In this document: in pieces, positions 1 through 61,577 of the stretch
Numbering within the stretch: position 1 is the stretch's first letter
How the letters are laid out: the number at the start of each line of letters is the position of its first letter
IMG/VR virus record: IMGVR_UViG_3300045771_000049
Span: 1-64,000 of that record
DNA: 64,000 nt
Source of the DNA: a virus
Taxonomy: Duplodnaviria; Caudoviricetes
Reading direction: 5' to 3' (one strand)
Notes under the pieces: model-generated
Database searches by the model: none
The model's input: the letters and a program-made list of their open reading frames with translations, nothing else
What the model was told of the DNA's origin: nothing
Position numbers and translations under genes: made by a program

Positions 1-409
1 AACGAAGGCTGTGCCGGACACTGATCACGCAACTGACTGACGGCTCGGTGTTCTCGTAGCCTTACAAACGAAGGCTGTGCCGGACAGGACTCGCGCGGTA
101 TCATCGGTCAGTTTCGTTCTCGTAGCCTTACAAACGAAGGCTGTGCCGGACACTGATCACGCAACTGACTGACGGCTCGGTGTTCTCGTAGCCTTACAAA
201 CGAAGGCTGTGCCGGACTACATCCCTCGCACTGCATCGGTTACTGATGTTCTCGTAGCCTTACAAACGAAGGCTGTGCCGGACTGGCGCGCGTTCGCCTC
301 CGAGACGCCCTGCGTTCTCGTAGCCTTACAAACGAAGGCTGTGCCGGACGAAGTACTAAGGCTCAACCATGTGGTTTCAGTTCTCGTACAAACGAAGGCT
401 GTGCCGGAC
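1..409 (-). CRISPR. CRISPR array, truncated by window start; 36-nt repeat, six 30-nt spacers
   Basis: + strand repeat GTTCTCGTAGCCTTACAAACGAAGGCTGTGCCGGAC at 1-19 (partial), 50-85, 116-151, 182-217, 248-283, 314-349; copy at 380-409 lacks GCCTTA. On the minus strand the AGCCTT/AAGGCT stem is followed by an 8-nt tail ACGAGAAC, and TTGACA lies upstream at 454-459. Strand is inferred. Confidence 0.95.
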
Positions 410-501
410 CGATGGGTTCCAAGTCCTTGCTTTGATTGCCAAAGATCGATTATTGTCAAGCCGAAATCCGCGCATTCCCGATCAGAACGACCAATATAGA
501 G

Positions 502-538: not shown

Positions 539-3500
539 TTACGGTGTGGCGGCCGGTGCTGGCGGTGCGCCTCCAGCCGGTGGGGCACCACCGCCCATAT
601 CAGCCCCAGGGACTGCCTCACTGCCGTCAGCCGGTGGGATATCGCCCTCGGGCATGCCCTCTGGCGGCATATCCATCCCCATATCGCCCCCAGGGTGCAG
701 ACCGACCGCTCCGAGACCGTCCTGCGAGCCGCCCTCAGCCGGGGAGCTACCAGTCTTCGCCTTGATCTTGTCGGCGTTTTCTTCGCTCCACATGGTCTCA
801 TTCTCGATGATCTCGTCATCGTTGAGACCGAGATAACGCTTCAATTTGAAGCGTTCTGACAACTTCTTATTCTCAGCAAGACCTTGATAGACCTGAACGC
901 GCTGGGCATCCAGTTCAATCTGCCGATACCGCGTAAACGACTGTGGTGGATTGAAATGCAGTTCGAACAGCCCGGCCTCGATTTCAATACCATTCTTGAC
1001 CAAATAACGTTTAAAGTCCTTGTCAAATACAGGTGCAAGCAGAGACTGAAGACGCATGCAGTATTTGGAGAAACGATACTCTTGGATCATTGCGGCGCCG
1101 AGTTTACCATCGTTGAAGGCAACGTTACTCGCGGCTTCATCCTCACCGATGTTGAGATAAGAGGTCGGAACACGCAGTCCACGCGCCAGCTTCTTGGAAA
1201 AGAAGGTTAGGTCAAGAATGCTGTCGTTTCCTTGGCCGCCTGGAAGCGTTTCCACTTTCGAGCCGCGTCCATCGGCTGAACTGGCAAAGAAATAATCGTC
1301 GTTGATGCTGTTTTGAATGAAGATGTTTTCCGCAATAGCGAAGTTATGGTGCGCACTGAACACCTCGTCCTTATCCACCGTAATCGTGCCTACCGTCTGA
1401 TTAGACGCGGGCTCGATCGCTTCAAGGCGGGGTTTTCCGTATGTTGGATCAAGTGCAATCAGTTTATGATCCGGGGTTAGGTCCTTCGCCTGAACCAGTT
1501 CACCACCACAGACCGGCAGTTTGTGCTCAGGTGTGCAGATCAACGAACCGCCATGGTCGAATTTTAGCCGGATCACCTCAGTATTCTGTTTAGTGATACC
1601 TGCCCATGAGATCGGCGCGTGTATTTTCTGACCGGTCTTCGGATCGACACTATACACAAAGTTCTTTGTACCAGCCTCGAACTCCTCGATGATTTGGGTG
1701 AGTGTTAGAACCCGTCCATCAGCCATAGGTAGTAGAGTTTCCAACGATACGCACAGAGGGTTGTAGGCAGCATCTAATATTGATCCGCCAGTTCCACTAT
1801 TCTTAGTGAAAATACCACCCTGGATTGCAAATGTATGGTAGGAGTGATAAATCTCATCACCATCAACTGTTATGGTGCCGGTATCCTGTTTTTCATCCAA
1901 TCTTTCGATCGAGACGAGTTTGTGATTAAGATATTGATATTTGGCCTGGAAATCATTAAAGTCTGTGAAACCATTTTGCTTCAGCAGTTCTATTATCGTT
2001 GTTGGACCGATTCGTTTCTTGCAATGGCGCTTGTTGATTTCAAAGAACCTATTCCGGAAACCTGCGTCTTTTTGAACACTCTGATACATCCGATGATACG
2101 GAACACCCGTCGTCCTGCTTTGCGACAGTTCTTGATAATGGCTTTTGAAAATACTAAACATCTCCTGATCGAATTGGTATCTTGATGTGAAACTCCTGTT
2201 TTTTAGTGCGGTCTGTTCCGAAATTTCTCCCGCAAAATAATCAGCCACCATTTTGTGTGTGTATTTCCAGCCTTTTGTCGCCGGATCAAAGATTTGTGTA
2301 TACGAGTTTTTCTTCTGGCTATACCGCTTTTCGCGAAAATAGAGTGGAATAAAACTCTCTCCAATCGTCAGGTCCTCAGCTTTGACGAACCCTTTGCCCA
2401 GAATAGGAAAAGAGTGGTCTGGCGTACACACGATGGTTTCACCATTGTCGAGGGTCAATTTGACCACATCGGTTTGCTTTTTGGTTTCACCGGCCCAAGT
2501 AATCTTACCCGGAACCACAGCACCTGTGGCGGGATCGCATGAGTAAACCCAGTTCTGTTTCCCTGCATTATGTTCTGCGATCACGTCACTGAGAGGAAGC
2601 AATCTACCGTCTAATAAATGTATTTTTGTCCCAAGAAACAAACAGCGATTTGGAATCCGACGTTGGTGAATATCGTTCTTTATGGATTCGATATGACGTT
2701 TGGCGCGTTCTGGTGGCATTGAACCGACATCGATGTAGAAAATCCGTCGTTCTGGCGCCCTCTGTACTCTGTAGATAAGTATAGAATCCTCCAAAAGCTC
2801 TTTCTGCTTAAATGTTTTAAATATAGGCTCAAGTATAGATTGACCAAACGGCCAATTTACATCGTTCCCTATACTTAGGGTAAGATGGATCACATGTTGA
2901 GCTTCGACAATACCGACATCCTGGGCGAACGGTCCCATCATATGTCTTTGGCGCGGATCAGTCGCATTGCCGACGAGCGTAAAAGGTGCGGGCGATGACA
3001 CGGGCGCTGATGCGGTGCGGGTGGTGCCTACGGGTGAGCCGCCGAACGGGGTGCGATATTGTGACGGATCGGCCTGTTTGGAGGCGAACTTGGCTTGGCG
3101 GTTATAGTCGAGGCCACGGACCAGATATTCCTCGGGGATTTTCCCGGCACTTTCATCGACCTTAACCATCTCGACCATGAAGTGATCGAGCCAGAGCCAT
3201 TCTTGGGTTTCCGGATCGCGCAGGAAGAACGCGTCGCCGTTTTTGATGGTATCGCGGAACATGTACCACAGCCGCGCCCGCATGTTGTTCAGCTTGAGCC
3301 ACTTATCCATCATCGTCTTGATGATTTTGACTTCCGATTCGTTCGGATCGGTGGTATACGCTACCTCGAACGGTTCGTCGTTTTGTTCTTCTGACTGGGT
3401 GCAGAAGTCCGCGATCGTGTCCAGTGCAGCATTTATATCGGAATCGCGATCCATATCGTCGAACTGATAGTATCGTTGGATACGATTAGGATGGCCCGCG

Positions 3501-3619
3501 TACACCAGTGGCAAAAAGCTCGATACATTGGCACTGGTCGATGCACTGGGACTGTATTGGTCTTTCGGCATGGTCGGCGAGCCGGTCTTGATAATCTGGA
3601 GGTGTTTTTTCCAAGAAAT
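539..3619 (-). CDS. T4 gp20-like portal protein with two inteins; probable ATT start
   Basis: Motifs QSILEP, LLEDSILIYRVQRAPERRIFYIDVG.MP, DDYFF...GRGSKVETLPGG. Frame extends 16 codons upstream of ATG 3571 to ATT 3619 (xSWKKH) with AAGGA upstream. Confidence 0.93.
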   Translation of the reverse strand: MSWKKHLQIIKTGSPTMPKDQYSPSASTSANVSSFLPLVYAGHPNRIQRYYQFDDMDRDSDINAALDTIADFCTQSEEQNDEPFEVAYTTDPNESEVKIIKTMMDKWLKLNNMRARLWYMFRDTIKNGDAFFLRDPETQEWLWLDHFMVEMVKVDESAGKIPEEYLVRGLDYNRQAKFASKQADPSQYRTPFGGSPVGTTRTASAPVSSPAPFTLVGNATDPRQRHMMGPFAQDVGIVEAQHVIHLTLSIGNDVNWPFGQSILEPIFKTFKQKELLEDSILIYRVQRAPERRIFYIDVGSMPPERAKRHIESIKNDIHQRRIPNRCLFLGTKIHLLDGRLLPLSDVIAEHNAGKQNWVYSCDPATGAVVPGKITWAGETKKQTDVVKLTLDNGETIVCTPDHSFPILGKGFVKAEDLTIGESFIPLYFREKRYSQKKNSYTQIFDPATKGWKYTHKMVADYFAGEISEQTALKNRSFTSRYQFDQEMFSIFKSHYQELSQSRTTGVPYHRMYQSVQKDAGFRNRFFEINKRHCKKRIGPTTIIELLKQNGFTDFNDFQAKYQYLNHKLVSIERLDEKQDTGTITVDGDEIYHSYHTFAIQGGIFTKNSGTGGSILDAAYNPLCVSLETLLPMADGRVLTLTQIIEEFEAGTKNFVYSVDPKTGQKIHAPISWAGITKQNTEVIRLKFDHGGSLICTPEHKLPVCGGELVQAKDLTPDHKLIALDPTYGKPRLEAIEPASNQTVGTITVDKDEVFSAHHNFAIAENIFIQNSINDDYFFASSADGRGSKVETLPGGQGNDSILDLTFFSKKLARGLRVPTSYLNIGEDEAASNVAFNDGKLGAAMIQEYRFSKYCMRLQSLLAPVFDKDFKRYLVKNGIEIEAGLFELHFNPPQSFTRYRQIELDAQRVQVYQGLAENKKLSERFKLKRYLGLNDDEIIENETMWSEENADKIKAKTGSSPAEGGSQDGLGAVGLHPGGDMGMDMPPEGMPEGDIPPADGSEAVPGADMGGGAPPAGGAPPAPAATP
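1310..1753 (-). mobile_element. Intein 2 in portal (148-aa mini-intein)
   Basis: Starts CVSLET, block B TPEH, ends HHNFAIAENIFIQN|S. Confidence 0.9.
1799..2644 (-). mobile_element. Intein 1 in portal (282 aa, probably degenerate endonuclease region)
   Basis: Starts CLFLGT, block B TPDH, ends YHTFAIQGGIFTKN|S; AT-richer than flanks; partial HNH-like YTHKMVA. Confidence 0.9.
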
Positions 3620-3643
3620 TGTCGTATTCCTTCTACATATCTG

Positions 3644-3649
3644 TATTTA
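3644..3649 (-). promoter_or_regulatory. T4-like late promoter core TAAATA (portal)
   Basis: Same motif precedes other minus-strand genes at 5537-5542, 7222-7227, 25970-25975, 31437-31442, 42351-42356, 56515-56520, 57094-57099, 58416-58421 and a plus-strand gene at 36996-37001. Confidence 0.8.
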
Positions 3650-3667
3650 CCTAAGTCGAACAGCGCC

Positions 3668-5512
3668 TTAAGTAAGGATCGAGGTCCAAGGCAGGAGACC
3701 GAGGGCGTCTTCGATATGCCGTAAGCGCGCATCGATCTCCTTGAAGGCGTTCAAGGATGCAAAAATCAAAGGTTTCTCATCAAAGCTCAATTGACCGGAA
3801 AGCCGAATAGGATCGCTCGGTGATTTGCCATCTATGTCATCAGTGGGCGGTTCTGTGGTGAACGAAACGCATTCCGGAACATGTGGTTGAGCCTGTTGTG
3901 CAGTAAGGCCATACAGAACGGTCCCGTCATCAGTGGTGCCGCCGAGGCCATTATATGCAAAGCTGACTGGATTCAGTTGGATGAGATCGGCTAGTCCTCG
4001 GTCATAGGGCTGCACATTTTCTTTGGTGCGTTCATCAGATACGTTTGCGTCGTATAGATTGCCGTAGATTACGAGATTGCCGCCGCCGGTGACGTAGTAA
4101 AGCAGCGTCCCGGTTGGATTGACATAACTGTATTGGCCAGTCGCGCCGTTCCAGATATGGTAATACTGATTGGGTGAGGGCGTATAGCTCATCACGCAGG
4201 AGCCACCCGTGAGGTTCAGGTAAAATGCGTTGGCCGAACCGCCAACATAGATCGTGCTTCCCGCAGCGACATAGCCGCCACAAACCATATTTTGCCCGAC
4301 CGTCAGTTGGGTGCCCACAGTGAAGGCAAGATTGGTCGCCCAGGCGGCGGTGGTGCTTTCACTTTGTAAATTCAGATATCCACTGGCGGCACCATATCCT
4401 GCGTAGCCCATGCGGGTCGCGGCGGCATTGAAAAACCCGGCATAGCCGGTGTTCGTTGCGCCAGTGCTGAGACCAATGGAACCATTGGCGCCGCTACTCA
4501 CTGTGACGCCCGAGAATGTCGCCGACGCGCCATTCGCAACAAAGGATTGCGGGTAAATCGTGCTACCGAGCAGACCAACATCGGTGGCATCAACCGTAAT
4601 TTTGGCGCCCGTTCCGCTGGTAGACCAACCGAGGTAAATCTTATTCGTGCCTTGTCCGATGCCGCCATCTTGCTGGACGGGGGTGAAGCCCAGTGCTGCC
4701 TGCCGCGAGGTATCACTAGGATGCACATGATCGCTCCGGGCGATCGTGTTGCTGATCCCGGCCGAAGCCGTGCCGTTCATCGCAGGGGCTGACGAACTGA
4801 GTTGCCCCCGCACAAAAGCTGTAGTGGCGATCTGCGTCGTATTGGTGTTCAGCGCAGGTGTGCTGCTTGTCGCACTGCCGCTGAGAGTGAGGCCATTGTT
4901 GATAGAGACCAGACCCGTTGAACGTGTGATTGAGACGGGTGAGAACAGAAAGGTTCCGGCGTCATTATAGGCGTTGATGGCGAAATCCGAACCGGTATTG
5001 AGACCGGTTTCGCTATCGCCGTTCGCATACACCGCCCAACGATTAACCCCGGCCGTCTGCAACAAGATGGCGCGTGATTGGACCAATGCAGGGGTTGCTG
5101 CATTGAGCGAGAGATTCGCGCCAGAGCCGGTGTTGGCGCCGAGGGTGAGATTGCCGCTAGCCAATATCGCCGTAACCTGGGCTGTGTCATAGGCGGCCAT
5201 CCCAGGAGCCGTCAGTGTCAGATAGACCTGCGCCGCGCCTGAGAGGGCTAGGGCAAGCGTCCCGCCGAGTGAGGATGCGGATACGACACGGGTCAGCGTT
5301 TCGGCCCCGAAGGTATAGACGCCACTGCCGACCTCCCAGACATTGCCGGTATCTTCGATAGTGTAATAGACGGTGGCGCCAGAGGTCAGCGCACCAGCAG
5401 CCACGGCCGCGTCAAAGGTTTGGAAACCCGGAACGGCCGCCCCGAGCTTGATCGTGCCGGTGCCGGTTGTTACAGTTGATACCCGCACCCCATCAACGAA
5501 TTGGATTGCCAC
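3668..5512 (-). CDS. Tail fibre protein with C-terminal intramolecular chaperone (peptidase S74-like)
   Basis: G/T/A-rich beta sequence, TTQIATTAFV and ARSDHVHP fibre motifs, SDERTKENV...LNPVSFAY...GLTAQQ. Confidence 0.85.
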   Translation of the reverse strand: MAIQFVDGVRVSTVTTGTGTIKLGAAVPGFQTFDAAVAAGALTSGATVYYTIEDTGNVWEVGSGVYTFGAETLTRVVSASSLGGTLALALSGAAQVYLTLTAPGMAAYDTAQVTAILASGNLTLGANTGSGANLSLNAATPALVQSRAILLQTAGVNRWAVYANGDSETGLNTGSDFAINAYNDAGTFLFSPVSITRSTGLVSINNGLTLSGSATSSTPALNTNTTQIATTAFVRGQLSSSAPAMNGTASAGISNTIARSDHVHPSDTSRQAALGFTPVQQDGGIGQGTNKIYLGWSTSGTGAKITVDATDVGLLGSTIYPQSFVANGASATFSGVTVSSGANGSIGLSTGATNTGYAGFFNAAATRMGYAGYGAASGYLNLQSESTTAAWATNLAFTVGTQLTVGQNMVCGGYVAAGSTIYVGGSANAFYLNLTGGSCVMSYTPSPNQYYHIWNGATGQYSYVNPTGTLLYYVTGGGNLVIYGNLYDANVSDERTKENVQPYDRGLADLIQLNPVSFAYNGLGGTTDDGTVLYGLTAQQAQPHVPECVSFTTEPPTDDIDGKSPSDPIRLSGQLSFDEKPLIFASLNAFKEIDARLRHIEDALGLLPWTSILT

Positions 5513-5563
5513 TGACGATTCCTCGAAACTATCGAATATTTAGCCCGTGGGTAGTTCACCCGG

Positions 5564-6409
5564 TCAATCCATGATGTTCGGACTGTCCGGCCTGTCTGGA
5601 TCGAAACTGGCGTGCACCGAGCGCACTTGCTGGGGGCGGAAGGCCACGGCGATATCGCACATTGGCGCTTCGGCCCCACGATAGCCTGGATCAAACGTGT
5701 TCTTGATAATCGCGCCATCCCGTCGTCCACGCTTGGCGGAAACGAGCAAATCATTATACGAGACCTCGCGGTAAGTATCGCCATGCATGTCGAAGATCAG
5801 CGGTTTGACCAGTTTGAGAAACACCGGAAATACGACCGCTTTGCTGATGTGGCCGCTGGTCTCTAAATTCTTCATCCGTTGCTCTAGTTCTCTAACCTGC
5901 TTATGCAGTTCTTGATAGCGTGCGTTAGCAATACGGCTCTCTTCTGTGTCGTATTTGGCATCGATCGCATCGCGCGCCGCCCGATAGGCTTCCGGACTAA
6001 TTCGTTTCTTTTTCGGTCCGTCATAAAACCGTGCGTACCAAACCGCCTCTTCCTGGCCGCGCGCGTTCCAGATCGATAGCGCCGATTCCATCTCGGCTTT
6101 CAGAGCGACGATATCAGCGGCGTATTTGTCATAGATCGGTTTGGAGCTATCCAGCATAAACCGTTCGCTCCCGCCATAGCTGACCGCGACTTTGGGATCG
6201 GAGGTGAAGAAAAACCCCTTGGTGGCGGACTTGGCGCCGGTATTCCGGCCCAGCAGGGCAGGATCGAAGGCTTCGATATCGTGACCCTTGGAGCCATGAT
6301 ACCACACCCGCGACGTGTCAAAGCCCATCTGCTTGGCACGGCTCAATCGTTCGGTCGGATCAAGCACTGCCTCGATTAAACTGAGCCAAAGGCGAAAGTC
6401 GTTTTGCAT
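5564..6409 (-). CDS. ADP-ribosyltransferase-like protein (ART-PolyVal type) with N-terminal leader
   Basis: MQNDFRLWLSLIE; WYHGS...F...GFFFTSDPKVA, VFPVFLKL, DGAII, VAFRPQQVRS; TAAATA 5 nt before ATG. Confidence 0.8.
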   Translation of the reverse strand: MQNDFRLWLSLIEAVLDPTERLSRAKQMGFDTSRVWYHGSKGHDIEAFDPALLGRNTGAKSATKGFFFTSDPKVAVSYGGSERFMLDSSKPIYDKYAADIVALKAEMESALSIWNARGQEEAVWYARFYDGPKKKRISPEAYRAARDAIDAKYDTEESRIANARYQELHKQVRELEQRMKNLETSGHISKAVVFPVFLKLVKPLIFDMHGDTYREVSYNDLLVSAKRGRRDGAIIKNTFDPGYRGAEAPMCDIAVAFRPQQVRSVHASFDPDRPDSPNIMD

Positions 6410-6485
6410 ACGAATATTTAGACCTTGAACAGGCGTGGCCTGCCACGAATAGCAAGGTCTATTATTCTATCAGATGTAATCCAAG

Positions 6486-7196
6486 TTAAGGCGCTGACTC
6501 GATTAGTTTGCAGTAGGCAACGATCACCGGAATGCCCTTCTTGAACAGGTCAAAGGAGGTGGTCCCGATCGGTGACCAGCCACCATCGCTGTAACGATTC
6601 AGGTCTTCCAAGTACGAGTGAAAGGCGTCCAGGGTTTTTTCCATCTCCGCGATCGAGCCGAACCCACCGCCGAGATATTTCAGATGTTTGAGCATCTCAT
6701 CCTCGGCCTGGAGTCGCGAGATGTCATCGGACATTTCGGTTTGATTATGCGCATCGAAATAGCGTTCCAAATTGTAACGCGCATCGGACCAGTCGATCCG
6801 GTCTTTCTTGTCGTCCCACCACCCCGAGAGAGCCTCTTCGGCGCAACTCAATAGATTGACCGGGTGCAACGTGGCATCCGGATTGGTCTCGCGTTCATAA
6901 GCCAATTCTTCCTGGTTCGACGCGGTATCACGAGCGGTGTTGGCTTTGATTGCAGCCCGCACTTCGATTACCCATTCTTGGTTCCATGCACCTCGGAGAT
7001 CAAATTCCGAGCGCTGGGATGCGGTGGCAATCTGCATGGCTCTGGCCTTCAATGCCGTTACCGCCTGCTTGGCAGTGACCAGCAAGTTGGCTTGGCGCTC
7101 CTGCTCCTGACGTAATAGGTCACCGTGGCTCATCGGCGCCGGTTTTCCTGGTCTCTTGGCCTCGGTGACGGAAATCAAATGACGCATCGGGTGCAT
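6486..7196 (-). CDS. Hypothetical helical protein with leader-like N-terminus
   Basis: Start moved to MHPMRHLISVTE (AAGGA SD, TAAATA at 7222-7227). Confidence 0.7.
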   Translation of the reverse strand: MHPMRHLISVTEAKRPGKPAPMSHGDLLRQEQERQANLLVTAKQAVTALKARAMQIATASQRSEFDLRGAWNQEWVIEVRAAIKANTARDTASNQEELAYERETNPDATLHPVNLLSCAEEALSGWWDDKKDRIDWSDARYNLERYFDAHNQTEMSDDISRLQAEDEMLKHLKYLGGGFGSIAEMEKTLDAFHSYLEDLNRYSDGGWSPIGTTSFDLFKKGIPVIVAYCKLIESAP

Positions 7197-7392: not shown

Positions 7393-7474
7393 TTTTTCGT
7401 AGCCTGCCTAGCAGACTGTGTTGGTCCGGACACACCCTCACTTCCTCGTTATTATCGTAGCCCGACAGGACTGA
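7393..7474 (-). repeat. Two degenerate CRISPR-repeat-like hairpin units
   Basis: Minus strand TCAGTCC-TGTC-GGGCT-ACGATAAT and ACAGTCTGC-TAG-GCAGGCT-ACGAAAAA. Confidence 0.65.
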
Positions 7475-8551: not shown

Positions 8552-8935
8552 ATGCCAGAAAAGAGAATCGTCGATGAATACAGCGCAATTCGCGAAGGCT
8601 TGGAAAGGGTCGAAGAAGAAAAAAAACGCAAATTCAACCCGCCCGTTGTTTATGAAATGTCGCAGAATGCGGGCGACTTCGCCTGGGAGATAGTGCAAAG
8701 CGGGCGATTGCAGCAATCCTATTTCTGGCACACAGGCGACGAGTTGGCAACAAAAGCCAGCTTCGTTCTCACTGACACCACCGTGCAACCCTTTATGATA
8801 TGGCTCGACCAGCAGCCGATCCGAGACATCAATACGCTGGCGCGGCGTCCGTTTAGCTGTGACGCCGGATACAGCGAACGGATCAGCAATCTCAAACGGA
8901 TATTTTGTCGCCTACGGATCATGAAAGTGATTTAG
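8552..8935 (+). CDS. Hypothetical protein
   Basis: AAGGAGG SD before MPEKR. Confidence 0.6.
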   Translation: MPEKRIVDEYSAIREGLERVEEEKKRKFNPPVVYEMSQNAGDFAWEIVQSGRLQQSYFWHTGDELATKASFVLTDTTVQPFMIWLDQQPIRDINTLARRPFSCDAGYSERISNLKRIFCRLRIMKVI

Positions 8936-8974
8936 ACACGGCGGCGCATTCGGACCTTGATTAGTAAATACGCT

Positions 8975-9697
8975 ATGCGTTGTTATGAACTATTCGAAGC
9001 CATCCCGATCAATCAGCGGCGTGCTGCGAAGCAAGGCTTCACCGTCGATGCGTATCATGGCACGTCGGCTGATTTCGACCGGTTTGAGAACAAAGGGTTC
9101 GCGCAACTTGGCTACCATTTTGGCGCCACGCCCGATCAGGCGCATAGCCGGGCGATCGCCAATGGGCAGGACGAACCGGCCGGGCAACGCATCCTGCCGG
9201 TCAAGCTTCGGTTGAAGAACCCGCTGCGTATCCATGACATGGAAGATTGGTCGGCGGCCAGTGTTCTGTGGGGCTTGCAATATAGCGGCGACATGTCGCC
9301 CCCACTGGCAGCCCTGGTACGCCAGTTGCGCACCGCGTTTCATGACATGGATTTCGCGGCCCGTGCCGCCGCGATCGAGGCTGTGGGCGATCTCTATCGA
9401 CAACACAATTGGTCGCAGTCGCGCTGGGGCGAAAATCAGCCACCGCCCGAGGCCGAGGAAATGGAACGTGCGGTCCGCGCGAAACACGCCATCGCCAATG
9501 AAGACACCCAGGTCAAAATGCTGGTCGATGGTCTCAAGCGGCTGGGTTATGATGGGTTCGTCTATAACAATCGGTTCGAAGGCGATGGCGATAGCTATCT
9601 GGTGTTTGACAGCAACCAGATACGCGGGCGGTTTGCCAACTTCGCGCCGAGGAAAACCGCCAGCAATCGGCTGATGGACGGCCGGGCCATCCCGTGA
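8975..9697 (+). CDS. ART-PolyVal-like protein with leader
   Basis: TAAATA-CGCT-ATG; MRCYELFE; AYHGT..F..F...GYHFG, ILPVKLRLKNPL, GYDGFVY, YLVFDSNQIR. Confidence 0.8.
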   Translation: MRCYELFEAIPINQRRAAKQGFTVDAYHGTSADFDRFENKGFAQLGYHFGATPDQAHSRAIANGQDEPAGQRILPVKLRLKNPLRIHDMEDWSAASVLWGLQYSGDMSPPLAALVRQLRTAFHDMDFAARAAAIEAVGDLYRQHNWSQSRWGENQPPPEAEEMERAVRAKHAIANEDTQVKMLVDGLKRLGYDGFVYNNRFEGDGDSYLVFDSNQIRGRFANFAPRKTASNRLMDGRAIP

Positions 9698-9713
9698 TCG
9701 GTATCTGGAACAA

Positions 9714-10283
9714 TCAGGCTGGCTTGCTGTTATACAGCAGGAGGTCTTTTCGGCCACTGCTCCGAGTCGAGCCAAAGTAATAGCTGACCACGGTGGTAAA
9801 ACTGACGGCGACCGCGCCCAGCATGACGTTCAGCACCGTCTCGTTGGGTCCGACAGGAATCGGATGCCACGCGAAAAACGTCAGCAGCAGGAAAAACAGC
9901 AGGGTGATCATCAGGGAGAACAATTCCGGGAACCACGCATGCTGGTGGCTGGCTTCGTCATCCGCGAATAATGGTGTGCCGAGCCGCCGCGCCGAGATTT
10001 TCAACGTCTTCATTTCCGCCTGGAACCGGGTTTCCCCCGCCTTTAATGCCCGAAGCTGATCGATCGTCACAGGGTTCAGGGCCATGGCGATTTGGGCTGT
10101 GGAAGTGTTCGGATCGAGGGCCAAAGCGACGCTGACGAAGGTCAACGCCAAGGTTCCCAGAGGGCCGCCAAGGGCGCGCGCAAGCGTGGGGGCCACAGTC
10201 GCGATAATCGCCTTTGCGGCCTCCCAGCCCGTCTCAGCGGCGTCTATGGGCTCGCTTACCGACGTGCTGGTGGGGTCGCTCAC
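9714..10283 (-). CDS. Holin-like membrane protein (GTA 3TM holin type)
   Basis: VAPTLARALGGPLG, C-terminal hydrophobic helices ending VVSYYFGS. Confidence 0.65.
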   Translation of the reverse strand: MSDPTSTSVSEPIDAAETGWEAAKAIIATVAPTLARALGGPLGTLALTFVSVALALDPNTSTAQIAMALNPVTIDQLRALKAGETRFQAEMKTLKISARRLGTPLFADDEASHQHAWFPELFSLMITLLFFLLLTFFAWHPIPVGPNETVLNVMLGAVAVSFTTVVSYYFGSTRSSGRKDLLLYNSKPA

Positions 10284-10298: not shown

Positions 10299-10493
10299 TC
10301 AGGCGCGGCCCGCTTTGGGCGGCCGGTACGAGGTCTCGTCCACATCGAGCGGACGCACCTGTTTGAGATAGTCAGTAGGCGTCATCCAGACCATCCGGCC
10401 ACCCTGCGCACGGTAATTCAGATTACCGTGCCACTCGGTGTCAGGATCGGCCAGGGGGTAGCTTCGAGCTTCGATCAGGTCGCGATAGCGCAT
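10299..10493 (-). CDS. Short, possibly truncated leader-bearing protein
   Basis: TAGATA-GGATC-ATG; MRYRDLIE; 64 aa. Confidence 0.55.
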   Translation of the reverse strand: MRYRDLIEARSYPLADPDTEWHGNLNYRAQGGRMVWMTPTDYLKQVRPLDVDETSYRPPKAGRA

Positions 10494-10548
10494 GATCCTA
10501 TCTATTGTTTCCGTCACTCCGGATATAGCTCATATCACCGTTGCCGAC

Positions 10549-10700
10549 TTTGTCGTAGCCGCCCGAAGACGACTGATTTCCTGAAAAGCTACCCCCGTGG
10601 CTCTTTTCGTAGCCGCAATAGCGACTGTATAGCTTAGCCGATGGGATTTGGAACGACAATCTGTTGTTTTCGTACGGCCTACGCTTGGAGGTGCCGTCAC
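10549..10700 (-). repeat. Three degenerate CRISPR-repeat-like hairpin units
   Basis: Minus strand ...GCCGT-ACGAAAAC, AGTCGC-TATT-GCGGCT-ACGAAAAG, AGTCGTC-TTCG-GGCGGCT-ACGACAAA, separated by 37 and 26 nt. Confidence 0.7.
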
Positions 10701-10713
10701 GAGCGGGCCTCGG

Positions 10714-11103
10714 TCACGGGAGAAAGACGACTTCTGTGGAATCATCGACGGTTGCGCCATTCAGCGGAGCTTTGAGCATGACCCCGACATCAGTCGCCGC
10801 AGTTACGCCTTCGCGGCGGCAGGTGCGAACCGAATCGCCCAGGTCGATAAGTGCTGCCACCTCCCCTGGGGCGATCTTCTTGTCCGCTGTGAGGATGGGA
10901 ACGTCGTATCCGCCGCATCGGGCCTTGATGATCGTGTAAGTCGTGGCGTTTTTAAAGCATACTGTGGTGCGGCCGGTATGCCCGCTGCAATCGACCATCC
11001 GCATGAATGCCAGATAGGGATTGGCTGGGGGAGTCTGCTCAAAGGCGGTGGGGGAGTAGAGGGTGATAACCGCCGCGCTGACCGCGAAAAGCATTTTCTG
11101 CAT
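10714..11103 (-). CDS. Hypothetical exported protein
   Basis: Signal-peptide-like N-terminus, four Cys. Confidence 0.55.
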   Translation of the reverse strand: MQKMLFAVSAAVITLYSPTAFEQTPPANPYLAFMRMVDCSGHTGRTTVCFKNATTYTIIKARCGGYDVPILTADKKIAPGEVAALIDLGDSVRTCRREGVTAATDVGVMLKAPLNGATVDDSTEVVFLP

Positions 11104-18316: not shown

Positions 18317-18392
18317 ATCAGTGTAGCTCAATTGGTAGAGCAGCGGTCTCCAAAACCGAAGGTTGAAGATTCGAGTTCTTCCACTGGTGCCA
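18317..18392 (+). tRNA. tRNA-Trp(CCA)
   Basis: Cloverleaf, loop CT-CCA-AA, TTCGAGT, encoded CCA end. Confidence 0.92.
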
Positions 18393-18411
18393 GTCAGGAT
18401 CGTGCCTAGAT

Positions 18412-18486
18412 GCCGGGGTAGCATAGTTGGTAGTGCATCGGTGTGAAGTACCGACCGCCCACGTTCAAATCGTGGCCCCGGCGCCA
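18412..18486 (+). tRNA. tRNA-Phe(GAA), atypical
   Basis: GCCGGGG/CCCCGGC acceptor, TCGGT-GTGAAGT-ACCGA anticodon arm, TTCAAAT, G-CCA end. Confidence 0.85.
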
Positions 18487-18510
18487 AATTCTACGACGTG
18501 CGTCACGACT

Positions 18511-18596
18511 GCATAGGTGGGTGAGAGGCCGATACCGTCGCACTGTAAATGCGATCTTTCAAAAGCGCGCTGGTTCGAATCCAGCCCTGTGCACCA
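18511..18596 (+). tRNA. tRNA-Tyr(GTA)
   Basis: TCGCA-CTGTAAA-TGCGA, long variable arm, GGTTCGAATCC, ACCA. Confidence 0.93.
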
Positions 18597-18597
18597 G

Positions 18598-18671
18598 GGT
18601 CCGTTGGCAGAGTGGTTATGTGTAGGACTGCAAATCCTACCACGAAGGTTCGATTCCTTCACGGACCTCCA
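18598..18671 (+). tRNA. tRNA-Cys(GCA)
   Basis: TAGGA-CTGCAAA-TCCTA, GGTTCGATTCC, T-CCA end. Confidence 0.93.
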
Positions 18672-18683
18672 ATCATCGCATGG

Positions 18684-19001
18684 CTAGACCATCAACAGCA
18701 CCACCCAAATGATTTTACAGACCACGTGAATGCCTTGGTCAGTCCGCACACTGATCTTGCGTTCACATTTCGCCCAATCGGTGAGCCAATGTGCGATGCA
18801 TTCGGCCGCGCCCAAGATACCCGAGCCGGTGATCCAAGCGACGATCAGACCATGGCTCGAAGCATGCACAGTCATTCCAAACTGCCATGGCAACATGCTG
18901 CGATTGTGATACTTATTTTTGAGACGCGAAAGCTTCAACCCACGTTGGAGTGGATGGTCCGCGATCGCGTGACCGATAAGCAGTAGCAGAAATGTCACCA
19001 T
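18684..19001 (-). CDS. DUF3307-like membrane protein
   Basis: GHAIADHPLQ, HWLTDWAK, DQGIH. Confidence 0.75.
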   Translation of the reverse strand: MVTFLLLLIGHAIADHPLQRGLKLSRLKNKYHNRSMLPWQFGMTVHASSHGLIVAWITGSGILGAAECIAHWLTDWAKCERKISVRTDQGIHVVCKIIWVVLLMV

Positions 19002-19010
19002 TCAGGTGTT

Positions 19011-19200
19011 TGTATAGTAGCCTCAGATGAAACTGATCAATGCTTTTTTCGACGAAGTGGCTCACTTTTTGTAGCCTGCACCACAAGGCTGGTAATCGGG
19101 TCCTCGATGTTGTCGTAGCCTTTGCAGACTGAACTCCATGCCGCCCACTTGCACGCATTCACGTTTTTGTAGCCTTTTTCGGTTTTCGTAGCTTGCGGCT
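19011..19200 (-). repeat. Three clear and two weaker degenerate CRISPR-repeat-like units
   Basis: + strand GTAGC-hairpin units with tails at 19011, 19065, 19109, 19163, 19182; e.g. minus AGTCT-GCAA-AGGCT-ACGACAAC. Confidence 0.65.
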
Positions 19201-19267
19201 TTCGGTTGGGATCGTGATGTGCCCTGATGGCCTCAACAGCGTATAAGAATACCGAGGTACGTTCAAG

Positions 19268-19567: not shown

Positions 19568-19654
19568 CAGGACGACCCATAATGATCAAGCTGCGCATTC
19601 TGATTCTCACCAATCTGGCTCGTCACCTTCAGGTCTATTTAGCATGATGGGATT

Positions 19655-19707
19655 AGCGCCATTCATCCGCGAGGCTAAAGACCTCGCGGTTTTCTGGCGC
19701 GTTCTTG
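19655..19707 (-). mobile_element. Orphan IS200/IS605 left-end remnant
   Basis: GCGCCATTCATCCGCGAGGCTAAAGACCTCGCGGTTTTCTGGCGC closely matches the reverse complement of the IS end at about 42362-42407, with compensatory stem changes. Confidence 0.75.
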
Positions 19708-21126: not shown

Positions 21127-21927
21127 ATGCGATATCATGAACTCATAAGGGAAGCGGCTGGTCGGAGCCACATTCGCGCCTATCATGGAACCACGCATGA
21201 TTTTGCGCGGTTTCAGATGAAAGCGGTCGGCAAAGGCGAAGGCTTCCAATCGTTCGGCTACGGTCTGTATTTCGCTGAGAATTACGAGGTCGCCCGGTTC
21301 TATGCCGACAAGATCGGCGCCGCCAAGCCGCCGGACGATCAACATGCCGAGGTGATCTATGAAGTCAACATCGCCGCCAATCTCGATAGTTTTTTGGATT
21401 TGGATGCGAAGCTGACGGATCAATCGCGATATGTGCAGGACGCATTGAGCGAAATCCTCTACATCGACAATGAACCGATGCTGAATGGCAAACGGTTCTA
21501 CGACTGTTTTCCCGAGGTGGCTCCGATCATACGCATCAAAGCCCGACGTGAATGGATGGCAGCACATGGTGATCTCGGGTCGTTTCAGTCGGCGTTGCGA
21601 CAGGTCGTGGCTACGGCCTCAGAGCAAGTCAAGGTATCGGTTGAGACGATTATTGCCGATGTGCGCGCTGCAAACCGGACGACAGCGCAGGTTATCAAGC
21701 CGGGATTGGGATCGCATCTCAGAGACGAGTTGCAGAGTATGACTGGTTCGCCCAAGGCGGTGTCGCAATGGCTGCGGAAACGCGGGATCAATGGGAACAC
21801 ATATTTTGACGAAGGGTCGCGCGGCATTGATCTCGCGCCGGGTCAGCCACCAACGCGTAACTTTGTGGTGTTTGATGCGCGGCAGGTTCGTGTAGTTGGC
21901 AAAACCTATCCCCGAGCAGCTAAATAG
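21127..21927 (+). CDS. ART-PolyVal-like protein with leader
   Basis: MRYHELIRE; AYHGT.HDF..F...GKGEG.QSFGYGLYFAE, GINGNTY, NFVVFD. Confidence 0.82.
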   Translation: MRYHELIREAAGRSHIRAYHGTTHDFARFQMKAVGKGEGFQSFGYGLYFAENYEVARFYADKIGAAKPPDDQHAEVIYEVNIAANLDSFLDLDAKLTDQSRYVQDALSEILYIDNEPMLNGKRFYDCFPEVAPIIRIKARREWMAAHGDLGSFQSALRQVVATASEQVKVSVETIIADVRAANRTTAQVIKPGLGSHLRDELQSMTGSPKAVSQWLRKRGINGNTYFDEGSRGIDLAPGQPPTRNFVVFDARQVRVVGKTYPRAAK

Positions 21928-28557: not shown

Positions 28558-29007
28558 ACCGCATACCGCTCGGTCATTCAATCCGACGCGGCTGTGGTGA
28601 TGGTAAATCGATACCATCATTTTGAGCGTCTTCCCACGCTTCCATTTCCTCGATCGGAATCCCGATTATAGGACCGGACACCACCGGGATGTTCGGGTGG
28701 CGCTTGGCCATACTCGCTGATTCGATTTTAGATTGCTTCGCCATGGTTACGTGCCCTTTCAACGACGCAGATGCGCCCAATATCGGGTTGTCTGGGTTGC
28801 GTTTTGCACACCGTCCAGCAACGCCCGCTGAGAGGGTCTACAGCGGCTTGGACGCGCCCGGTAGGGGTAGGGTGCCAAATTGCTTTGCTGCCGTCTAGCC
28901 CCCCTTAGCGGGGCGTACAGAGGCGATTGCTGCTTGTCGCAGGATTGATCGGCAGGCAAACCGTTTGGTTTGACACTGTGGGGCATTTACGGCATCATAA
29001 CAAGGAT

Positions 29008-29472
29008 ATGGCAGGAGTGCAAACGGGTATGCCTGGGTCGCAAGCAAGGCAACGGTTGACCGATATTGCCGGGATGCTGCTGAGTGACTCGGCGCCCGAG
29101 GCCCAGAATGCGTTGGCCATGTTGCGCAAGATCACGGCCGACGCGGGGATCACGGCGGGTGATTTCAAGGAGCGGTTCGCGAAGGTCTTCGCCCAGCCCG
29201 ACACCACTGACAAGCTCGTGATGACGCGGGAGGAACTGACCGATTTCATTGCGCGCGGCGTGACCCAAGAGCGCAACAACCAGCCGACGGATAAGGGGCA
29301 TGAGCGTCTGAAACGGCAGCGTGACGCAGCGATCCACAACACCCGTTTGACTGGCGCTGCGTTTGGGGCCGCCCTGTTCGATGCCTGGATCAACCAAAAT
29401 GATGCCAGTAACTATCTTTGGCTCGGAGCGATTATCATGGTATGGTTGGTGTTCCTGCGGTATCGCAGCTAA
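29008..29472 (+). CDS. Hypothetical membrane protein
   Basis: Two C-terminal hydrophobic segments; start uncertain. Confidence 0.55.
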   Translation: MAGVQTGMPGSQARQRLTDIAGMLLSDSAPEAQNALAMLRKITADAGITAGDFKERFAKVFAQPDTTDKLVMTREELTDFIARGVTQERNNQPTDKGHERLKRQRDAAIHNTRLTGAAFGAALFDAWINQNDASNYLWLGAIIMVWLVFLRYRS

Positions 29473-29553
29473 ACTTGTCGATCACTATCAGTCCGTGGAA
29501 CTGGTCGGGCTACGATAATCACAGGGTTGGGACCGAGCCTTTGTGCGTACACA

Positions 29554-42414: not shown

Positions 42415-42813
42415 TCAACCTTGGTTCTCAATGTATTTCCTGATCGTCTCCTGTGATGCATTGCCAACCGAACAGGCGAAGTAGCTGGGCGACCAGAACG
42501 TGTGCTTCTTCCAGAAATGCCGTGATAACGCGGGTGCGTGATGTGACCATAGATCATGCGTCGTCTCGGATTTGAGCTTGCTCACAATCTGCGTGACCGA
42601 AATGTTCGGCTTATACGACACCATCAGATGGATGTGGTTCTTGTCCACTTCTATTGTATCGATCTCGAAGTTGCTCCGCGTAGATATTTCAAGCATCTTG
42701 GCTTTGACCTCATCGCCATAGGTGATAAGCAGCTTCTTGCGGTATTTGACGGTGAATATCAGATGAACGAGCAAGAGAAACTTTCTGTGGTCTTCGGATG
42801 ATAACAAACGCAT
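42415..42813 (-). CDS. tnpA: IS200-type Y1 transposase
   Basis: HLIF..KYR, HIH (HUH), FWS.SYF..SVG, YIENQ. Confidence 0.95.
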   Translation of the reverse strand: MRLLSSEDHRKFLLLVHLIFTVKYRKKLLITYGDEVKAKMLEISTRSNFEIDTIEVDKNHIHLMVSYKPNISVTQIVSKLKSETTHDLWSHHAPALSRHFWKKHTFWSPSYFACSVGNASQETIRKYIENQG

Positions 42814-42855
42814 TCTTATTTACACCAGATTGCCATGTGTTGTATAAATAGAAAT

Positions 42856-44106
42856 ATGAAAGCGTTCAAGTATAGACTGAAGCCGACTAGCGAGCAAGAG
42901 GGCGCATTGCGTCAAACTGGCGGTGCTTGTCGTTGGCTTTGGAATAAGATGCTCGAACAGAACAAAGCCAAATACGAACAAGAAAAGAAATTTGTCTTCA
43001 AGTATGATTTGGTCGGGTCTCTACCAAAACTGAAAGAGCTACATCCGTGGCTGAAGGAAATGCCTAGTCAATCGTTGCAGCAGAGATGTTGGGATTTGGA
43101 TACCGCTATGAAGCGGTGCTTCAAGTCGGGATTTGGATTCCCGAAGTTCAAATCGAAAGATGATGAAAACGACACGTTCCGTATCTCCCAGACCAATGGG
43201 CATATTAAAGTCACACGGCAGGCGATCAAGCTACCAAAATTAGGATGGATCAACTGGCGGCGTCATCGACCCATCGATGGCAGATTGATGTCTGTCACCA
43301 TCAAGCAGGAGGGCATTCGCTGGTATGCTATTTGTTTGTGCGATACAGGCGAGGTGCTGAACCAGATCAGCGTTTGTGAAGATGACATCGTTGGTATTGA
43401 TCTTGGATTATCCTGCTTTGCCATGACCAGCGATGGCGAACTATTTGAGAAGCCAGCCCAATGCTACCAACGACTCAAACATGAGCAACGGAAGTTGAGT
43501 CGGATTGACGAGTCGAACAAGAAACAAGGCATTACCAAGTCCAACAGAAGGCTCAAACAGAAACAAATATTAGCCAAAACGCATCGTATTATTAGCGATC
43601 AGCGATATGATTTTCATCACAAGACGAGTAGAGAGATAGCCAATTTCTATAAGTTTGCTGGCATGGAAGACCTACATATCAAAGGAATGATGAAGAACCA
43701 CTGCTTAGCAGGTTCAATAGCTAAGGCAGGCTGGCACTCATTCCGAATGATGATACGATACAAACTCAAAGACCAAGGCGGCGATCTGTTACTGGCGGAT
43801 CGGTTCTATCCAAGTACCAAGCTGTGTTCGAGTTGCGGTCATAAGCAGGCGATGACGCTTGCCGATCGCACGTTCACATGCGAATCCTGTGGGATGGAGA
43901 TGAACCGAGATGCCAATGCGGCGATCAATTTGAAGCTGTGGGCGATGAGAGAGATGAATAGGGCTGGGACAGTCCGAATCTACGCACGGGGAGATACCGC
44001 CATCGGGGACGAAATACGTAAGTCGTCTAGATGTGTATCATTGAAGCGTGAAAAGTTCCGAGACAATCAGGTCTTGGAAGCCGCGACCTCTTTAGGGTCG
44101 CGGTAG
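42856..44106 (+). CDS. tnpB: RNA-guided endonuclease TnpB
   Basis: MKAFKYRLKPT, GIDLG, EDL, CSSC/CESC, RD.NAAINL; TATAAATA 5 nt before ATG. Confidence 0.95.
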   Translation: MKAFKYRLKPTSEQEGALRQTGGACRWLWNKMLEQNKAKYEQEKKFVFKYDLVGSLPKLKELHPWLKEMPSQSLQQRCWDLDTAMKRCFKSGFGFPKFKSKDDENDTFRISQTNGHIKVTRQAIKLPKLGWINWRRHRPIDGRLMSVTIKQEGIRWYAICLCDTGEVLNQISVCEDDIVGIDLGLSCFAMTSDGELFEKPAQCYQRLKHEQRKLSRIDESNKKQGITKSNRRLKQKQILAKTHRIISDQRYDFHHKTSREIANFYKFAGMEDLHIKGMMKNHCLAGSIAKAGWHSFRMMIRYKLKDQGGDLLLADRFYPSTKLCSSCGHKQAMTLADRTFTCESCGMEMNRDANAAINLKLWAMREMNRAGTVRIYARGDTAIGDEIRKSSRCVSLKREKFRDNQVLEAATSLGSR

Positions 44107-44667
44107 TTCACATGAATATCGTTCCGATATGTTTCCGCTATCCAGTTTATCCTGGTCATAGTTCGCGAATTCAGATCGAATTTGACTTGGATTGAATACT
44201 ACGTATTGCGTAATGGGCGTTTTTCCATCCGGACTATCGGTTAACGTGTCCGGCAGGACGATCCCATCATAGCCATTGGCTTGGAGAAATTGACGGGCAG
44301 CAGGGTAATCGGTCGTGTCACCATTCATCCGGATTTGCCGTCCGCCGACCACGTAGTCGGGTTTTCTGAATGTGGTGAAACGATCGACCAGATCACGGAT
44401 TTCATTGTAGCTCTTGATCACCCAGGGATGCTTCAAGCGCAACCGCACCGGCATGACCGACGCGCCCTGTCCCCGTGCGGCAAAATCGGCAAACCCTGAA
44501 GCCGCCTCGGGATTATCCGTAAACCAGATGCCCAATGGACCTTCGCGCGATCCACTGCCCAGCTTACTGCCCATTTCAAAGGTGTGAAAATCTTTGTTAG
44601 TGCCGTGAAATGCTTTGATATTGAACCCAAGCTGTTCGGGACGGCCGATTAATTCCATGAGCCGCAT
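44092..44667 (-). CDS. ART-PolyVal-like protein; last codons supplied by the IS
   Basis: MRLMELI; AFHGT..F..F...GIWFTDNP..A, VMPVRL, GYDGIV, YVVFNPSQIRS. Confidence 0.82.
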   Translation of the reverse strand: MRLMELIGRPEQLGFNIKAFHGTNKDFHTFEMGSKLGSGSREGPLGIWFTDNPEAASGFADFAARGQGASVMPVRLRLKHPWVIKSYNEIRDLVDRFTTFRKPDYVVGGRQIRMNGDTTDYPAARQFLQANGYDGIVLPDTLTDSPDGKTPITQYVVFNPSQIRSEFANYDQDKLDSGNISERYSCELPRP

Positions 44668-60977: not shown

Positions 60978-61577
60978 ATGCGCTCGCGTGAATTCCTTGA
61001 AGCGTTATCGATACGGGCACAGACCGAGACCCCCGAGTTTAAACGCTGGTTCGGGGCTTCGAAGGTGGTGGATGCCGAGGGACAGCCGCTGATCGTCTAT
61101 CACGGAACCACCAAGGATTTCGAGGCCTTCAAACTGCCCGGCCGCAAAGCCAGGGGCGGTAATGCGATCTTCTTCGCCACCGCGCCGAGTACGGCATCGT
61201 ATTTCAGCCGTAACATGGCCAATGCGCGAGTGCTTCCCGTCTACGTTCGCTTGGAAAACCCGTTTGACTTCGCGAGTGAGGCGGCATTGGCATTGATCGA
61301 GCCGTTCATCCGGAAGAACTTTGCGGCATTATATCCAGGTGCATTGTTCGGTCCGGATGCGGCCATCAGCTTCTTGCGCGGCGGCGACTATGGCAGTTTG
61401 GAAAAACCAGCGGTGCGCGCATGGATGGTCAAGCGCGGCTATGACGGGTTTTGGACCAACGAGCAGGCTGGTGGCCAGCGCACGCTCGGGGTCTTTAGTC
61501 CCAATCAAGTCAAATCAGCGATTGGCAATCAGGGTCAGTTCAATCCGGCTGATGACCGGATCAACGAGGCGCCGTGA
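60978..61577 (+). CDS. ART-PolyVal-like protein with leader
   Basis: MRSREFLE; FKRWFG.SKVVD..G.PL.VYHGT, IFFA, GYDG, VF.PNQVKSAIGN.GQF; GGAGG SD. Confidence 0.88.
   Translation: MRSREFLEALSIRAQTETPEFKRWFGASKVVDAEGQPLIVYHGTTKDFEAFKLPGRKARGGNAIFFATAPSTASYFSRNMANARVLPVYVRLENPFDFASEAALALIEPFIRKNFAALYPGALFGPDAAISFLRGGDYGSLEKPAVRAWMVKRGYDGFWTNEQAGGQRTLGVFSPNQVKSAIGNQGQFNPADDRINEAP

Follow-up and report, generated by a model that had tools for sequence, protein, structure and literature searches.

Dispersed stubs of a CRISPR repeat hairpin in a huge phage and their repeat-family link to type IV-A genes

We analyzed a short mini-array at positions 10549-10692 on the minus strand of a 64,000-nucleotide (nt) virus sequence (IMG/VR record IMGVR_UViG_3300045771_000049, positions 1 to 64,000; hereafter the window), which is the first part of a 152,147-bp phage contig. 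The mini-array contains two well-formed hairpins and a degenerate one, each followed by a short conserved tail, which we call the handle. These units belong to a hairpin family with about 17 members at seven places in the contig and dozens more in related huge phages. Judging from the sequence, the family is formed as RNA on one strand, it matches the 3' half of the repeat in the phage's own CRISPR (short palindromic repeats, clustered and regularly interspaced) array, and in relatives the same repeat family stands beside Cas6e-like and type IV-A genes. The explanation we favor, tentatively and at somewhat less than an even chance, is that the units are repeat stubs which a Cas6e-like ribonuclease (RNase) would cut, giving hard-wired guide RNAs similar to CRISPR RNAs (crRNAs) for a type IV-A effector. 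The contig makes up only about 36% of the genome by CheckV estimate, indicating a huge phage, and T4-type portal and gp23-type capsid genes are present. The phage, which comes from bogs, was recovered from 47 blocks of samples with an identity of at least 99.97%.

The mini-array sits in a 220-nt gap flanked by the minus-strand genes 10714-11103 and 10299-10517. This gap shows no variation across nine public assemblies of the phage (at least 99.97% identical), and no gene is called inside it in any of the nine. The units and the sequences between them are the following:

10549-10575, minus strand: unit 1, C AGTCGTC-TTCG-GGCGGCT ACGACAAA, read directly; 7-bp stem AGUCGUC/GGCGGCU with two U-G pairs and a UUCG loop
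10576-10602, minus strand: spacer-like sequence from the unit 2 handle to unit 1, 28 nt counting the conserved C at 10575
10603-10627, minus strand: unit 2, C AGTCGC-TATT-GCGGCT ACGAAAAG, read directly; 6-bp stem AGUCGC/GCGGCU with a UAUU loop
10628-10665, minus strand: spacer-like sequence from the unit 3 handle to unit 2, 39 nt counting the conserved C at 10627
10666-10692, minus strand: unit 3, degenerate, with GCCGU in place of GGCU before an exact handle ACGAAAAC

The first-pass annotation, made from the sequence of the window, had described three hairpin-plus-tail units here, one of them with a cUUCGg tetraloop. The tetraloop was read directly in unit 1. A covariance model built from ten equal-length 25-nt units of the family matched unit 1 with 24.0 bits (E 8.6e-5) and unit 2 with 33.2 bits (E 1.4e-7), and the tail-to-tail spacings are 54 and 63 nt. 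The description thus stood for units 1 and 2 and for the spacing, but unit 3 turned out to be degenerate, reaching only 8.5 bits (E 5). Its stem is a weak ACGGC/GCCGU pairing around a 14-nt loop, not of the family type, and the hairpin is seen in the centroid fold. Unit 3 is a decayed or partial member of the family. None of the three units has the 5' portion of the repeat (about 9 nt), and they differ in their stems and loops. The 39-nt interval equals the length expected in a regular array, namely a 30-nt spacer plus the 9-nt 5' flank of the repeat. Full-length, regularly spaced direct repeats are absent from 10549-10692 and occur only in the array at 1-409. No promoter-like site was found upstream of the units on the minus strand of 10400-10800. 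Taken as a whole, the 220-nt gap is not unusually stable, its fold being no better than that of shuffled sequences (z -0.06), so the signal lies in the local hairpins.

The hairpin family has the form C|AG(U/C)C-variable stem and loop-GGCU|ACGANAA. With at most one mismatch, GGCTACGANAA occurs 16 times in the window compared to 2.8 expected, and none of 100 shuffles reached 16; five of these 16 matches are repeats of the array at 1-409. Of the non-array tails in the contig, 79% follow a stem of 5 bp or more, versus 13% in shuffled sequences, and for at least 6 bp the values are 53% versus 4.8%. At E values up to 1e-3 the covariance model matched positions 7393, 7451, 10549, 10603, 19109 and 29489 (plus strand) together with the array repeats, and beyond the window 69045, 69116, 69151, 69219, 71686, 71804 and 121902 (plus strand). 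Weaker family members by the same model start at 71745, 19182 and 19065. The other loci in the window are:

7393-7473, minus strand: locus 1, two units, CAGUCC-UGUC-GGGCU ACGAUAAU and CAGUCUGC-UAG-GCAGGCU ACGAAAAA (E 8e-4 and 3e-4)
19065-19201, minus strand: locus 3, a strong unit at 19109-19131 with a GCAA loop and two weaker ones (E 6e-4, 0.07 and 0.11), besides copies of the tail alone
29489-29519, plus strand: a solitary unit, CAGUCCG-10 nt-CGGGCU ACGAUAAU (E 1.6e-4)

The two units of locus 1 are 33 nt apart and lie between two co-directional minus-strand genes. Locus 3 lies in the leader of a DUF3307 gene (18684-19001); a cluster of four transfer RNAs (tRNAs; Trp, Phe, Tyr and Cys) at 18317-18671 on the plus strand stands back to back with it. 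The solitary unit at 29489 begins 16 nt past the stop codon of the plus-strand gene 28927-29472, in a convergent gap. Beyond the window, locus 4 (69045-69243) is a stand-alone cluster, antisense to both neighbors, with its own promoter-like site. The units at 71686-71826 are in a convergent gap as well and share with 29489 the range of 10-16 nt past a stop codon, and the unit at 121902 lies 198 nt downstream of a gene. Within each cluster all units have the same orientation. At six of the seven loci the unit strand coincides with the coding strand of the upstream gene, and the seventh is the one with its own promoter-like site.

We counted structural conservation in a set of 57 distinct units taken from this phage and from related ones. 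The basal pairs A-U, G-C and C-G are invariant; at the third pair, 34 units have U-G and 23 have C-G. The two inner pairs (depths 4 and 5) appear in CG, AU, UA, GC and UG forms, giving four to five pair types. Overall 98.8% of the cells are paired, and double-sided changes occupy 45 cells compared to 12.2 in shuffles, with none of 500 shuffles reaching 45. These counts lean towards structure as the alignment was fitted to the model; an anchored count, which is free of this model-fit bias, agrees with them. The covariation score is 0.363 versus 0.152 in shuffles (again 0 of 500 reached it), with slid controls at or below 0.10. Since the U-G pair (depth 2, 34 of the 57 units) becomes a C-A mismatch on the opposite strand, the hairpin works on this strand only. 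The compensatory changes and the strand-specific U-G pair indicate that the units are under selection for RNA structure, in agreement with the first-pass annotation. That annotation had also held that the stem base and an 8-nt tail are kept while the loops change freely. Over the 57 units this is true of the stem base and the loops, but the tail is conserved for 7 nt only (ACGANAA); the eighth position varies and nothing is conserved beyond the tail. The conservation of the 7-nt handle equals that of the stem base, and the C before the stem is kept in 51 of 60 units.

The apparent parent of these units is located at the left end of the contig:

1-409, minus strand: CRISPR array, cut by the contig end, with a 36-nt repeat GUCCGGCACAGCCUUCGUUUGUAAGGCUACGAGAAC and 30-nt spacers
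451-456, minus strand: TTGACA hexamer, read directly, a candidate -35 box of the array leader

The repeat of this array (GTCCGGCACAGCCTTCGTTTGTAAGGCTACGAGAAC) recurs with a period of 66, and its 3' half reads CAGCCUU-loop-AAGGCU ACGAGAAC. By sequence comparison the dispersed units are copies of the 3' hairpin and handle of this repeat, which represents the parent form, and the earlier proposal of a dispersed family, loci 1 and 3 included, tied to the phage's own repeat is borne out. Three bog contigs, L153, L155 and L175, extend the array further. Together with L153 and L155, it shows a duplicated 30-nt spacer, a truncated 10-nt spacer and a damaged first repeat lacking AAGGCT, which suggests recombination and not ordered acquisition of spacers. 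TTGACA leaders also precede arrays or units in L106 and L176, two of the relatives described below. Adjoining the array leader is the portal gene (539-3571, minus strand), which is of the T4 type (PF07230, E 3e-84) and is split by an intein splicing domain (PF14890).

Relatives were found by pattern scans of IMG/VR and JGI metagenomes. The first-pass annotation had let its reading depend on conservation of the units in relatives, and the units are indeed kept in relatives, among them L013, L106/L098, L111/L132 and L143. Seven units are present in each of the huge-phage contigs L013 and L143. The units of L106/L098 follow TTGACA promoters and have the loop CGTTTGT, identical to that of the array repeat here; one L106 unit is placed directly before a Shine-Dalgarno sequence and an ATG. 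About 30 units fill 4.3 kb in L111/L132, and in L151 and L154 a regular array of about 14 repeats runs straight into this irregular L111 stretch. In L111 itself (1-1620 and 3393-4272), irregularly spaced units are accompanied by short tandem duplications of the tail alone. Among the relatives without cas genes, no conserved array-adjacent protein was found. Throughout the metagenome scans the repeat family appeared in phage-like contigs only, and the other matches of the double-motif scans are coding repeats for G-Y-E-N. Searches through the flanking small proteins yielded no relatives, and phage GenBank records gave tRNA matches only.

Three relatives connect the repeat family to cas genes. 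In L146, a Cas6e-like gene (Pfam PF08798, E 2.5e-6; PADLOC Cas6e, 3.5e-8) directly precedes a regular array whose repeat ends in GGGTGGCTACGAAAAC. A homologue of this gene, 53% identical, is found at the end of the 554,748-bp contig L176, where it closes an operon in the order Csf2/Cas7 (1e-12), Csf4/DinG (4e-48), Csf3/Cas5 (2e-15), two unnamed genes and Cas6e-like (4e-12). The two unnamed genes (209 and 253 aa, at 8609-9999) have no PADLOC, Pfam or NCBIfam match; they may encode the Cas8/Csf1-like and small subunits of the subgroup. The L176 operon is followed by a TTGACA leader and then by 16 repeats of CTCTCAGCCATTTAGAAAATAGATGGCTACGAAAAC, all of which are matched by covariance model R1, and the array trailer carries a loop-variant unit besides copies of the tail alone. 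When 1.84 billion representatives were searched with a profile, only 45 relatives of the Cas6e-like protein came up, the best distant one leading to L179, in which a Cas6e-like gene and a DinG-type helicase gene precede eight repeats of GATATGCAACCCCTGCGTTTGAGGGGTTACGAAAAC and, after the array, two loop-variant units of the CAGTCC..GGGCT kind. Both L176 and L179 therefore have loop-variant CAGUCC..GGGCU units at the trailer ends of their arrays. The arrays of L146, L176 and L179 end in ...GGCU/GGUU ACGAAAAC and adjoin Cas6e-like genes, and two of the three relatives carry type IV-A genes (Csf2, Csf3 and DinG in L176; the DinG-type helicase in L179). Based on these arrangements, the hairpin with ACGAAAAC is the repeat signature of a type IV-A subgroup residing on large phage-like elements, and the cognate enzyme is most likely the Cas6e-like RNase of a type IV-A system rather than a type III Cas6.

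In type IV-A systems, the precursor crRNA is cut at the stem base by Cas6, which then stays on the 3' hairpin as a cap; the 5' tag of 7-8 nt is held by Cas5, and gene silencing by the complex needs no nuclease (PMC11519345). What a Cas6 and a Cas5 would read is just what the stubs have kept, the remainder being lost, so the array-maturing RNase should bind and cut them. Accordingly worded as a model, the units would be truncated and diversified 3' halves of a type IV-A repeat, retaining the Cas6-binding hairpin and the 7-8-nt 5' handle without the 5' part. They would be transcribed on the minus strand together with the flanking genes or, at another locus, from the promoter-like site of their own. 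Each unit would be bound by the Cas6e-like endoribonuclease that matures the arrays of this lineage, and be cleaved at the stem base on the 3' side (...GGCU|ACGA...). From two units separated by 28-40 nt, this would set free an RNA of crRNA size, with a 3' hairpin and a proper handle, that could be loaded on the Cas5/Cas7 backbone of type IV-A. Such a cluster would amount to a mini-array that is hard-wired and not acquired, supplying guide-like RNAs to a silencing effector without a nuclease, of the CRISPR interference (CRISPRi) type, and cutting of the messenger RNA (mRNA) at unit sites would be a side effect. Cleavage, loading and any target are what we infer from this design. The strict conservation of the handle would point to loading into a complex and not to mere binding or titration of Cas6. 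Five of the ten inter-unit distances (33, 35, 35, 39 and 40 nt) resemble the 34-39 nt from the handle to the next stem in regular arrays.

Several observations weigh against this interpretation. The other half of the inter-unit distances (8, 18, 28 and 47 nt) are unfit for a canonical crRNA, position 8 of the handle is variable, and position 5 differs in most dispersed units from the G of the array. The cas-bearing relatives are distant, as L176 has a GC content of 42% compared to 55% here and shares one protein at 48% identity. A six-frame search of the 152 kb found no Cas6 (PF01881, PF10040), RAMP (PF03787), Cas6e (PDLC01340), type IV Cas7 or DinG; tblastn of the L176 proteins against the contig gave nothing; and Pfam tables showed no cas gene in 19 kb past the array or in 9 kb past the other contig end. 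The missing enzyme may be encoded in the unseen 64% or so of the genome, or be supplied by the host or by another element. In addition, matches of the intervening sequences to promoters or mRNAs, which the first-pass annotation had proposed to search for, did not appear: neither the contig nor some 170 retrieved loci contained a match of at least 18 nt. Likewise, the array spacers have no target of at least 18 nt outside arrays.

Comparison with known systems places the proposed guides among fixed, repeat-derived RNAs. Similar to the units here, type IV-A arrays have a repeat hairpin followed by a 7-8-nt handle, and the L176 and L179 arrays share this very hairpin and handle. The phage repeats are 36 nt, whereas characterized type IV-A repeats are about 28-29 nt, and the system is on huge phages instead of plasmids. 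The units further differ from type IV-A arrays in lacking the 5' repeat part, in their variable stems and loops, in their irregular spacing and in lying far from any cas gene. A precedent for the favored model comes from Sulfolobus solfataricus, where the single repeat-like motif of ncRNA60 is cut by Cas6-3 and loaded into the Csm complex (PMC4041471). Like the proposed units it is a motif outside an array that provides a crRNA-like 5' handle in an effector complex, but it is one archaeal cellular locus beside cas genes and its effector is type III. CreA of CreTA and the crlRNAs (bioRxiv 10.1101/2024.12.27.630466) are also fixed, degenerate guide-like RNAs flanked by repeats, used for gene control; their partially matching targets are known and the regulators themselves lie beside the controlled genes, whereas no target was found here. 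Virus-borne mini-CRISPR arrays (Medvedeva 2019, Faure 2019) have no cas genes, one or two spacers and complete or truncated repeats (PMC8616872). Their repeats are near-identical and most of their spacers match related viruses, in contrast to stubs with different stems and no target found.

The stubs occupy leaders, gaps between genes and 3' ends, frequently next to ADP-ribosyltransferase (ART) host-takeover genes. A bolder extension of the favored model, which we consider rather doubtful, is a genome-wide RNA code, in which the stubs of huge phages would yield fixed guides steering the nuclease-free effector onto genes of the host or of rivals, with Cas6 also cutting and stabilizing phage mRNAs. 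If true, the stubs would form no immune memory but a CRISPRi and operon-processing system of natural origin, passed on by inheritance.

Another possibility, unlikely in our view, is that the stubs are decoys similar to the RNA anti-CRISPRs (Racr), mimicking the repeat of a host or rival and soaking up Cas6, perhaps also Cas5 and Cas7, which would prevent genuine crRNAs from being produced or loaded. Solitary repeat units of viruses are known to act in this way and need the stem base (PMC10651486). As with Racr, the units here are repeat-like hairpins outside an array with no cas genes nearby, and the contig as a whole has none; some Racr follow a promoter, as does locus 4 with its promoter-like site, whereas the units at 10549-10692 have no promoter of their own directly upstream. 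The units are also numerous, with about 17 over the 152 kb and a tandem run of about 30 in L111, which would suit titration. Five of the seven unit loci are within 1.3 kb of a paralogue of ART-PolyVal, a gene type of host takeover (a post hoc association, p about 0.007); the contig has ten such paralogues, those in the window being at 5564-6409, 8957-9697, 21127-21927, 44092-44667 and 60978-61577. This association is not absolute, as the 19 kb past the array (L175) contain three ART genes and zero units. Racr are single, near-exact mimics of host repeats, in contrast to the many diversified stubs with compensatory changes, a strict handle and the phage's own array alongside. Maintaining a regular array of the same repeat implies that the phage uses the machinery and does not block it. 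Moreover, the handle of RacrIF1 can be changed without loss of inhibition (PMC10651486), while the handle here is strictly kept. An exact-pattern scan of 185,579 species genomes turned up no host array carrying this repeat, its single match being a chance one within a coding region.

Punctuation of mRNA is improbable as the main role of the units. Cleavage of the Cas6 type would leave upstream mRNAs ending in a protein-capped hairpin and downstream mRNAs with a 5'-OH, and would thereby set the stability and expression of neighboring genes. Ends with a 5'-OH and a cyclic phosphate do result from Cas6 cuts (PMC11519345), and products bearing a 5'-OH have greater stability (PMC10651486). Loci 1 and 2, which separate co-directional genes, locus 3 within its leader, the units shortly past stop codons (29489 and 71686) and the one before the Shine-Dalgarno sequence in L106 would suit this function. 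It does not account for the stand-alone, antisense locus 4, for tandem runs of 3-30 units, which exceed the need, or for the strict conservation of the handle.

A similarly small likelihood attaches to a hairpin independent of Cas proteins, either the site of another RNA- or single-stranded-DNA-binding protein or a cassette that shuffles ART genes (compare PeSL of T4, and REP), whose motif the arrays merely share. The lack of a cas gene in the contig, the tail-only copies and tandem tail duplications, and the flanking of ART paralogues by unit clusters both here and in L111 would all fit. However, the motif is the repeat of arrays with unique spacers beside Cas6e-like or type IV-A genes in three relatives, the units within a cluster are co-oriented, unlike REP pairs, and the only Y1 transposase of the contig (42415-42813) has other end hairpins, CCGCGACC..GGUCGCGG. 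For the same reason we rejected IS200/IS605 ends and REP/RAYT elements, as the single Y1 TnpA belongs to a TnpA/TnpB element (42415-44106) with hairpins of its own. This IS605-type element consists of divergent TnpA (Y1) and TnpB genes with the end hairpin CCGCGACC-TCTTTA-GGGTCGCGG; the hairpin recurs as a lone end-like copy around 19650-19700, beside locus 3, and a piece 86% identical is present in L013.

It is quite improbable that the units have no function today and are neutral remains of arrays that are old or broken. Trailer ends of arrays decay, unit 3 is degenerate, the phage's array has truncated spacers and damaged repeats, and the gap folds like shuffled sequence, all as expected of relics. 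In contrast, compensatory changes keep the stems while loops and spacers have diverged fully, the large majority of the non-array tails (79%, as given above) retain a stem of at least 5 bp, the 5' repeat part has been lost uniformly, and the same layout recurs in distant relatives.

A small protein gene, whose frame would read the tails as P-Y-E-N, G-Y-E-K and G-Y-D-K, is very improbable: the three tails share one frame through the 54- and 63-nt spacings and a 53-aa open reading frame (ORF) starting with TTG spans 10498-10659, but the motif of L111 falls in all three frames with stops (5, 12 and 11 copies per frame), only five of 11 spacings in the contig are multiples of 3, the codon-use score of the ORF is marginal (5.3), none of the nine assemblies has a gene call, and coding would leave the hairpin covariation unexplained. 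The TGA of the 129-aa gene (10714-10716) is followed by 72 in-frame open codons through all units, up to the stop at 10498, which is most likely chance (one frame in three) and not the sign of a read-through product.

Further candidates were tried and rejected. An intrinsic terminator does not fit, as the tail ACGANAA provides no U run after the stem, and on the opposite strand the T run precedes the stem. VIPR guide arrays, with alternating GGY/NN pentamers, were dismissed as well, since the contig contains no run of four or more GGYNN and the unit loci have two at most. A larger structured RNA is at odds with the z of the gap (-0.06), and Rfam found only the four tRNAs in the window. The 5' tag of type III-A crRNAs in Staphylococcus epidermidis is ACGAGAAC (PMC9762709), identical to the 8-nt handle of the phage array repeat, and had suggested a type III system. 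The contig has no RAMP, Cas6 or AcrIII-1 (PF08960) gene, the repeat family is linked to type IV-A genes in the cas-bearing relatives and to no type III, and the dispersed units carry ACGA(A/C/U)AA. Taking these sequence links together, the match to the type III-A tag is a misleading lead.

Known viral repeat units and mini-arrays are single or near-exact copies. Here, a repeat has been stripped to its protein-binding core, multiplied and kept by compensatory evolution, and the pattern reveals which parts of the repeat are read, namely the A-U, G-C, Y-G and C-G stem base, the preceding C and the 7-nt handle. The finding further connects huge phages from peat bogs with a type IV-A subgroup, so far little known, whose repeats are 36 nt long and whose RNase is Cas6e-like. 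If processed and loaded, the units would represent a natural viral example of fixed guide RNAs or of Cas6-based transcript processing, and also a ready-made mutational map of Cas6e-like specificity. If they act as decoys instead, RNA anti-CRISPRs would be extended to type IV.

A single ORF of 3937 aa occupies 44667-56480 on the minus strand of the window. In the relative L111, an 840-aa protein encoded at 4376-6898 (minus strand) matches the shoulder of the major vault protein (PF11978, E 5e-18) and a vault repeat domain.

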